Positions 45,546 to 47,589 of a DNA stretch of 64,000 nucleotides are shown piece by piece. Under the pieces are notes generated by a model. That model had not been told where the DNA came from and ran no database searches. It was given only the letters and a program-made list of their open reading frames with translations. The first letter of the stretch is position 1, and each line of letters opens with the position of its first letter. This stretch comes from Glaucostegus cemiculus. Its lineage: Eukaryota. The stretch is taken from positions 10,850,001 through 10,914,000 of the forward strand of contig CDPCPM010000050.1 in assembly GCA_976551045.1 (NCBI GenBank), read 5' to 3'. A program made the translations under genes and the position numbers.

Positions 45546-46063
45546 ATTACAATAGAACTTCCCATACCCAGAGCCTCCTGGAACACCACAACCTTCTGTC
45601 TAAGAAGCAAGTCACCTTGATTCGTATCAATGTTGATTGAAGAGCAAGCTCAGAGAACACAAATGTAGCACACTGGTACAAGACTGGAGTAAGGATACTT
45701 CCTCAGGACCAAACACAGGCAGCAACTGGAAGGAAATCTTGCCTCAGAGATCAGAGTAGTAATCCCAACACAAACTGAATCTTCAAGCAGGAATAGAGGA
45801 CACAGGACTGCTCTGGAGTAGACCACTAAGCAGCTAGGAGTCAAAGTACACCTGAAGGTTGACCAATCCTCTGGCAACTAGTGCTAGAGAAACCCAGGTA
45901 CTTATGCTAGGCCCCTAATGGGGCTCAGGTGTGTGTGTCATTATGACATCAGTCCAGCATGGAATCCATGTGCTGTACAATGAGGCATCTAAGGAGCCAA
46001 ATCAAGGGCCAGTACTCAGAATCATGACAGTACCCCACCCCCCCTCCTCAACACGGCTCTCGG

Positions 46064-46249
46064 CTACCCACTGGGCTTGTCTGGATGGTTCTGATAGAAG
46101 TCCTGAAGTAGGAGGAATCCAAAAATAAAGGAGCGAGGAACCCAGGAACATGCCTCTGGACTGTATCCCTCCCAATTGACCAAGTAGTGCAGGCCCCCAC
46201 CCTGGCAGCATACATCCAATAAATGCCAGACAGTGTACACTGGGTTCAT
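46064..46249 (-). CDS. 61-aa ORF consisting of a Tf1/sushi-type integrase chromodomain (expression unproven)
   Basis: [56 protein letters not shown] / YLV.W.GY / SW.P chromodomain pattern; ATG in GCCACCATG context. Confidence 0.55.
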
Positions 46250-46250
46250 G

Positions 46251-46264
46251 GTGGCCAGAGTATT
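46251..46264 (-). promoter_or_regulatory. Self-priming primer-binding site
   Basis: 1 nt from the 5' LTR end; exact 14-nt reverse complement of 46511-46524 inside the same LTR. Confidence 0.8.
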
Positions 46265-47589
46265 CTGTCACAATGTTGATTGAAGACCAAGTTCACAGAG
46301 AACCCAAATGCAACACACTGGTACAAGACTGGAGTCAGGATACTTCCTCAGGGCCAAACACAGGCAGCAACTGGAAGGAAATCTTGCCCCAGAGATCTGA
46401 GTAGTAACCCCAACACAAACTGAATATTCAAGCAGGAATAGAGGACACAGGACTGCTCTAGAGTTGACCACTCTAAGCAGCTAGGAGCCAAAGTATACCA
46501 ATGGTTGACCAATACTCTGGCCACTAGTGCTAGAGAAACCCAGGTACTTATGCTAGGCCCCTGATGGGGCTCAGGTGTGTCATTATGACATCAGTCCAGC
46601 ATGTGCTGTACAACGAGGCATCTAAGGAACCAAATCAAGGGCCAGTACTCAGAATCATGACAATTTGAGACTATATCTCTGGTCCTTCATCATTGCTGAG
46701 TCTAACTTGGAACTCACTACACACTGGTGTTGTGGGAGTAACTTCACCAGAGGGATTGCAGTGGTTCAAGAAATTGGCTCACAACTATGGCAATAAATCT
46801 TGGACATACTAGCACTGTTGACCTCGAAAAAAATAAGTGAATAATAAGATGGATGCAAACACATGGATCATGCTAGAAAGGAAGCACAGAAGTCAGAGGT
46901 GACAATTTCTGGTTGAGATTGGTCTAAAAAGAATTCAGACTTGAGGAAAGGGAACAGTGTGATAGGTTCAGGACTGGAAATACACCTACACTCTGTGGAT
47001 AGTGTGCAAAGGTGGGTGATGACAAAGGCTGGTGCAAGTAATAAAATAAAAAACCAAAGGGCTGGAACTGGCTGCTATTTCCATGCTGAAATACTGGCAC
47101 TTCTCCTTGCAAGTGCCACCAGGTGTGGGATTCCTGTGTGAATGTGGATGTTCCAGATTTGCTGCCAATCTTAGTCAACAATTCCCTGATTACATTCCAA
47201 CCCTGGATTCTTCATCGAGTCCAATGGTAAAACACAAATCTGCTGCTGTTTTCTGGACTTGAGCTGGAAAATCTGTCTGCTGGACCAATGCAAGGTTGAG
47301 CCTGCACAAGATGTAAATCCATTCATTACAATGGAGAAGAATGGCTGCTAGGGATTTAGGTTAGAGTTATATAACATGCACTTTTTAATTTAATTAAGTG
47401 ATAGGCAAAACATGTAGGGAAAATATTTGATATGCAGAGGCTGGTTATAATTTGAAAGTTATGGTCTGTAGGGGTGCTGTAAGCAGAGTCATTTGGGGCT
47501 GTCAAAGGGGAATTTGAAAAGCAGTTGAATGAGAAATAAGTTATATGGAAAGACTAGTTAAATGGTGTTTTCCAGTCAACATTAGAAGG

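Follow-up and report, generated by a model that had tools for sequence, protein, structure and literature searches.

The locus described here raises the question of whether a miniature LTR element that codes for nothing but a chromodomain belongs to an amplified family able to make a free chromatin-reader peptide, as the initial annotation had proposed, or whether it is a product of internal deletion. The element lies in the window, a stretch of 64,000 nucleotides from Glaucostegus cemiculus (GenBank assembly GCA_976551045.1, contig CDPCPM010000050.1, positions 10,850,001 to 10,914,000 of the forward strand), which was analyzed together with related copies elsewhere in the genome.

Anatomy of the element and its open frame

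The annotated arrangement of two LTRs around a 236-bp interior was confirmed, and the chromovirus miniature extends on the minus strand from 46662 to 45625 (Table 1). The PBS as well as the polypurine tract (PPT) that had been named were located. The 5-bp TSD is present as well, although not as a perfect repeat, since its two copies, CAAAT and CGAAT, differ by one mismatch. Between the 5′ and 3′ LTRs, 25 of the 393 positions that could be aligned are different (6.4%). Two LTRs, a PBS, a PPT, a TSD, the absence of enzymes and a length of ~1 kb give the element a TRIM-like layout. Neither AATAAA nor ATTAAA occurs in its 3′ LTR, and none of the window's eleven long open frames matched a Pfam entry. 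The 5′ end of the RNA is predicted to fall at the self-primer arm of the 5′ LTR; the ORF starts at the first ATG of this predicted transcript. GCCACC precedes that ATG, and the predicted 272-nt leader contains no upstream ATG. Positions 45450–45552, immediately left of the element, hold a short repeat of very high copy number (contig depth, all four runs), and the flank from 44800 to 45400 may be a decayed LINE fragment.

Table 1. Features of the miniature element and of the neighbouring solo LTR, in window coordinates
Feature	Position	Strand	Basis
TSD, 5′ copy, CAAAT	46663..46667	-	flank comparison
5′ LTR, 397 bp, TGTCA...TGACA	46266..46662	-	LTR alignment
Self-primer arm within 5′ LTR, complementary to PBS over 14 nt	46511..46524	-	inverted repeat
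11-nt core of self-primer arm, form found in most copies	46511..46521	-	
Interior between LTRs, 236 bp	46030..46265	-	
PBS, self-priming type	46251..46264	-	14-nt perfect complement in LTR
61-codon ORF from gag ATG (GCCACCATG) to integrase chromodomain; decayed	46064..46249	-	
Deletion junction, 8-nt direct repeat ACCCAGYG	46238..46245	-	comparison with long copies
Pfam Chromo match, residues 6–53 of ORF	46091..46234	-	Pfam search
Polypurine tract	46033..46049	-	
3′ LTR, 405 bp, degraded terminal bases	45625..46029	-	LTR alignment
TSD, 3′ copy, CGAAT	45620..45624	-	flank comparison
Solo LTR, same family, own TSD (ATACC)	49248..49655	-	LTR comparison

The identification of the 61-aa ORF as a chromodomain was borne out by its match to the Pfam Chromo profile (E=1.8e-8; 34.6 bits at a cut-off of 25.1), which covers positions 2–52 of the 53 in the model. 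The chromodomain aligns with those of MPP8 and the CBX proteins. Placed by what we take to be the cage residues of MPP8, aromatic side chains occupy all three cage positions of the ORF (Y5, W26 and Y29). Three aromatic residues are the rule for a chromodomain cage according to PMC6317226, and retrotransposon chromodomains, such as that of MAGGY, can bind H3K9me according to PMC4600332. MAGGY-type (type I) chromodomains, as these two sources describe them, have aromatics at three cage positions, as does the window ORF; they work fused to integrase, whereas the window chromodomain is detached and mutated. Its frame is open, as annotated, but not intact: two one-base changes that offset each other put residues 43–46 out of frame, and the stop comes early, six codons ahead of the one used by most copies. 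The suspected CpG decay is evident, with a single CpG in 171 nt of the window copy compared with 12–13 in two long copies. A search for stand-alone homologues among proteins of 33–107 residues, with this decayed eukaryotic query, returned no candidate.

The parent element and its self-priming site

Family searches covered the 2.85-Gb assembly, and all pattern counts given below are lower bounds. They recovered the autonomous-type partner anticipated by the initial annotation, a parent of ~4.4 kb with the organization gag-PR-RT-RH-IN-chromodomain. Ten long copies were compared, with interiors of 4.34–4.43 kb in seven and of 5.9–6.9 kb in three; a single intact gag-pol frame was absent in all nine long copies scanned for open stretches. 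Two long copies, L044 and L046, share the same flanks on different contigs, are ~1% apart and represent either a duplicate or a haplotig. Pfam matches on five stop-free stretches of copy L045 and one of L043 place the parent domains in gypsy order: Retrotrans_gag, Ty3_capsid, aspartyl protease, RVT_1, RNase H, integrase zinc finger, SH3_Tf2-1 and Chromo, the last two following each other at the integrase C-terminus in L045:4273–5013. The parent RT found its best PDB matches in the Ty3 entries 4ol8 and 7q5b (E 6e-71), and the parent gag found none in PDB. The gag-frame ATG of L045 lies 16 bases behind the LTR; the window ORF begins at this same ATG (interior base 17), which is in frame with Retrotrans_gag in L045, so that the start codon had been rightly presumed to be that of gag.

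The annotated PBS is correct in position but is of the self-priming type, being complementary to LTR positions 46511–46524. The pairing with this stretch inside the LTR extends over 14 nt in the window copy and over an 11-nt core in most copies. One position of the pairing covaries. Between 3′ LTR and PBS, we counted 20 G-C pairs, 14 T-A pairs, 9 mismatches and 2 other combinations (p=0.0002, a value that ignores kinship, the copies being related and their lineages not independent); between 5′ LTR and PBS, the corresponding numbers were 16, 12, 12 and 2. This compensatory base change fits self-priming in a vertebrate element. When a 301-nt leader was folded at minimum energy, a local hairpin took the place of the LTR-PBS pairing.

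Self-priming is given as a mark of Tf1/Sushi elements in PMC6317226 and PMC4600332. Tf1/Sushi chromoviruses (Metaviridae; V-clade, for example sushi-ichi), as outlined in PMC6317226 and PMC3601003, have the same gypsy order, a self-priming PBS and a three-aromatic chromodomain. The LTR start, TGTCATG, fits the Sushi motif TGTYANR, and the LTR 3′ end fits the Sushi motif CNTNACA at 6 of 7 bases. With ~4.15 kb of gag-pol gone, the window copy, unlike the Tf1/Sushi chromoviruses, cannot be autonomous. Judged by its sequence, the element is a non-autonomous derivative, of an ordinary kind, of a Tf1/sushi-type chromovirus. The family may already have an entry in Repbase, Dfam or another repeat library.

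Copy number of the junction form and the amplified miniature class

The join between gag start and chromodomain is not unique to this locus; a unique junction is what the initial annotation had named as speaking against its proposal. The junction pattern gave at least five exact matches and at least six when up to 3 mismatches were allowed, and L006, from a separate search, brings the junction copies to seven. Six of the seven have two LTRs, with six different TSDs; L039 is a junction copy without most of its 3′ LTR. As had been envisaged, the same junction recurs at several loci, but an amplified peptide-making family is unsupported: the seven copies stand against at least 602 LTR-PBS-ATG 5′ ends of the family and make up ~1% of them. 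Exact unfused chromodomain entries number at least 201 and exact unfused gag starts at least 292. None of the first 30 of the 602 5′ ends carries this junction; 13 belong to an amplified short class, 6 show six other deletion junctions, 4 are unbroken for 1.5 kb and 7 are truncated or interrupted. Interior sizes after deletion range in the family from 191 bp to >1.5 kb. The element as found matters little in itself, being one rung in a ladder of sushi-type internal deletions.

PMC13570524 treats non-autonomous LTR elements as a size continuum whose members may retain residual domains. TRIMs, as characterized there, measure ~1 kb and have two LTRs, a PBS, a PPT, a TSD and a residual partner domain, and the window element is alike in these respects. 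It differs from TRIMs in its 400-bp LTRs, its very low copy number and the short open frame that it retains; the same paper applies the term to non-coding elements.

The amplified class has an interior of 330–390 bp and comprises at least 314 copies, counted as pattern matches; loci L052–L081 belong to it. Its members consist of long-copy interior bases ~1–39, 197–240 and 4035 to the end, and one base pair between LTR and PBS is changed in the class. Codon 10, counted from the ATG, is a stop. Although the search pattern behind the 314 matches itself contains this stop, copies of the class found by other searches have it too (5 of 5 and 12 of 13). Furthermore, the segment with the first aromatic-cage codon is missing in 22 of 30 sampled loci, and the further deletion that removes it gave at least 166 matches. 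Because of the codon-10 stop and the loss of the first cage codon, the best-spread forms keep no usable chromodomain ORF; as predicted from the reading frame, translation that begins at the ATG of the class would reach the chromodomain only by readthrough. Made by nested deletions, the amplified class is the true TRIM of the family and, with its 345–380-bp form, fits the term better than the window element does. The family as a whole offers a tidy example of miniature LTR elements arising by nested microhomology deletions.

Thirteen copies of the 380-bp class keep the segment. In eight of these (L009, L013, L025, L029, L054, L064, L066 and L077), the start codon, which is ATA in one, lies in the chromodomain frame, the one interruption being the codon-10 stop, here a TGA followed by C; the two joins of the class give such an in-frame outcome by chance one time in three.

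Formation of the junction and fate of the chromodomain frame

Comparison with the long copies supports the earlier proposal of an in-frame gag-to-chromodomain deletion through microhomology, as the join lies in a direct repeat; this repeat is not the 4-nt CCAG that had been suggested but the 8-nt ACCCAGYG. In long copies, ACCCAGYG occurs 4 bases after the point where the gag ATG begins and again directly before the chromodomain; two of five long copies have it without mismatch in both places. One repeat remains in the window element, and about 4.15 kb were removed. Since further 8–10 nt repeats are also present around the gag start in long copies, ACCCAGYG is not special. Splicing was rejected as the cause of the junction because no cut inside the 8-nt repeat yields a GT...AG intron.

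Our preferred reading, which we hold to be reasonably probable, is that the window element is a decayed, internally deleted Tf1/sushi-type copy and a deletion product that has formed repeatedly, its chromodomain ORF being a likely by-product without a job. Reverse transcriptase would have switched template between the two 8-nt repeats during minus-strand synthesis, and the proteins of a helper element would have integrated the deleted product, giving the TSD. As the cause of the deletion, such a slip seems somewhat more probable than DNA repair after insertion. The same slip at the 8-nt repeat would have happened at least twice, and the chromodomain DNA would have been retained as a passenger beside the PPT and not through translation.

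The number of origins was addressed with a tree of 56 rows built from the 3′ interior and the 3′ LTR, in which six junction copies were usable. These six need 5 changes, a value as low as this being reached in 76 of 500 shuffles. A single clade of the six was rejected (p-AU 0.012); a single clade of five, with L038 dropped after the tree had been seen, was not rejected (p-AU 0.255). On the same tree the amplified class needs 6 changes, yet it clusters far beyond chance; as this class is surely one family, recombination has blurred the tree. The mean p among junction copies is 0.118, compared with 0.102–0.112 to other copies, and neither alignment contains a state common to at least three junction copies and rare (<12%) elsewhere. 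A minority LTR base occurs in 4 of 7 junction copies and in 10 of 67 others (p=0.021), and a minority T-run length in 5 of 7 and 23 of 74, respectively (p=0.045), both p-values being uncorrected with 8 sites tested. Minority LTR variants are common to L006, L036, L037 and, in part, L040 and L041; the same LTR haplotype is found in L023, a 551-bp deletion copy without this junction, and those of L038 and L039 are different. What had looked like a run of LTR variants in common, at alignment columns 342–349, turned out to be an alignment artefact of one indel, and the base resembling T that the window copy showed at column 179 is likewise an artefact. We interpret these data as pointing to at least two origins of the junction, with a possible small sub-lineage to which the window copy would belong.

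Mixing of LTR haplotypes is visible in the family. The 5′ and 3′ LTRs of one two-LTR element often disagree at family-polymorphic sites while the TSD is intact, which suggests that templates were mixed at insertion or that conversion took place later. The solo LTR, at a distance of 2.6 kb from the element, shares five rare letters with the window 5′ LTR, the highest value among 2592 pairs; two of the five are also present in the window 3′ LTR and are absent from 70 other LTRs. Either local gene conversion or a common parent would account for this sharing. As LTR pairs with different alleles inflate LTR ages, the LTR-LTR distance of the six junction copies (4.7–7.4%) was rejected as a clock: the pairs disagree at inherited sites, and the window 5′ LTR shares variants of its neighbour.

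These data bear on two alternatives. In the first, one deletion founded a small TRIM sub-lineage of a few helper-driven copies, whose LTR haplotypes were scrambled by either recombination of co-packaged RNAs or later gene conversion and whose peptide had no selected role. Such a history, which we regard as possible but clearly less probable than the preferred one, agrees with the recurrence of the same junction with different TSDs in six copies and the presence of all cis signals, with the shared minority LTR variants and with the p-AU of the five-copy clade; moreover, the LTR mixing that it invokes does occur, as seen in the discordant LTR pairs and in the window 5′ LTR and the nearby solo LTR. 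It is opposed by the lack of a rare state common to three or more junction copies, by the occurrence of the haplotype in L023 as well, by the different haplotypes of L038 and L039, and by a count of 7 copies versus 314 for the amplified class. In the second, a one-off deletion at the window locus would have been the source from which look-alike junctions elsewhere arose by gene conversion. Local sequence exchange or common parentage at the window locus would be in keeping with this scenario, but the seven junction copies sit on six contigs, are ~12% apart from each other and have no private variants in common, making it very improbable. We return to the preferred reading of a repeated deletion product, according to which the junction form probably goes back to deletions that happened as rare accidents and is not a family with a useful peptide.

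The state of the chromodomain frame is in line with this. Random disruption of the ORFs, the other finding that the initial annotation had named as adverse, was indeed observed: four of the seven junction copies are broken outright, and two more are damaged within an open frame. Three of the seven junction copies have an open frame, compared with 22 of 39 controls (p=0.69); controls found by similarity lean towards intact copies, but among the 7 scorable, pattern-found copies of the amplified class the frame is likewise open in 3. In the open junction copy L036, the conserved W-V-P stretch is lost. The suggested dN/dS comparison revealed no purifying selection, with a pairwise pN/pS of 1.05 among the 4 of 7 junction copies that are of equal length (49 codons, with 8 masked; sets of four drawn at random range over 0.70–2.01). 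Among controls, the value was 1.29 in 8 copies of the amplified class and 1.07 in 17 other copies, and the window copy gave 1.48 against long or unclassified copies. The decay of the junction copies looks neutral, as dead copies give, at low power. With only seven copies and a frame that decays as in controls, the idea of an amplified family making a free chromatin-reader peptide found no support.

The element, or one of its copies, might still express a selected free chromodomain peptide that acts as a methyl-lysine-reader decoy or modifies the targeting of its helper. An in-frame fusion, a first ATG in strong context with no upstream ATG in the predicted leader, the cage aromatics kept in the window copy and the start that is in frame, bar one stop, in eight of the thirteen 380-bp-class copies would all suit such a peptide, as would the H3K9me binding of which retrotransposon chromodomains such as that of MAGGY are capable (PMC4600332). 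Nevertheless, with four of seven copies broken and two more damaged, a pN/pS of ~1 that rises to 1.48 for the window copy, and the most amplified forms stopping at codon 10, often without the first cage codon, we judge a selected peptide to be most unlikely. Equally slight is the chance that a vertebrate miniature has kept all cis signals and expresses only a free methyl-lysine-reading chromodomain, as a decoy against the readers used in host silencing or as a guide to where its helper integrates, its frame having been reached twice, a count in which the 236-bp class attains the frame directly and the 380-bp class only if the codon-10 stop is read through. Were a free chromodomain expressed and selected, it would constitute a transposon-encoded chromatin decoy. 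At title and abstract level, we found neither such a decoy nor a chromodomain-only miniature element described in the open-access literature.

Junction-crossing sequence was present, among the pieces listed, in one 67-nt contig of run X1, with fewer than 31 letters on each side; contigs of this kind cannot show absence. The pieces listed from two other runs (X8 and X12), which we guess to be RNA, break off at the junction, their loose ends being those of the unfused forms.

Other arrangements were noted at further loci. On contig C1, unrelated LTR-like sequence stands a few bases past the gag ATG in L082, L083, L084 and L086; three of these are 99% identical together with their flanks (segmental duplicates), and the fourth is 90% identical. 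An inverted LTR directly follows the truncated gag start of L104, and L087 contains an inverted gag start. L064 and L065 are two short elements that face apart, with ~400 bp between them.
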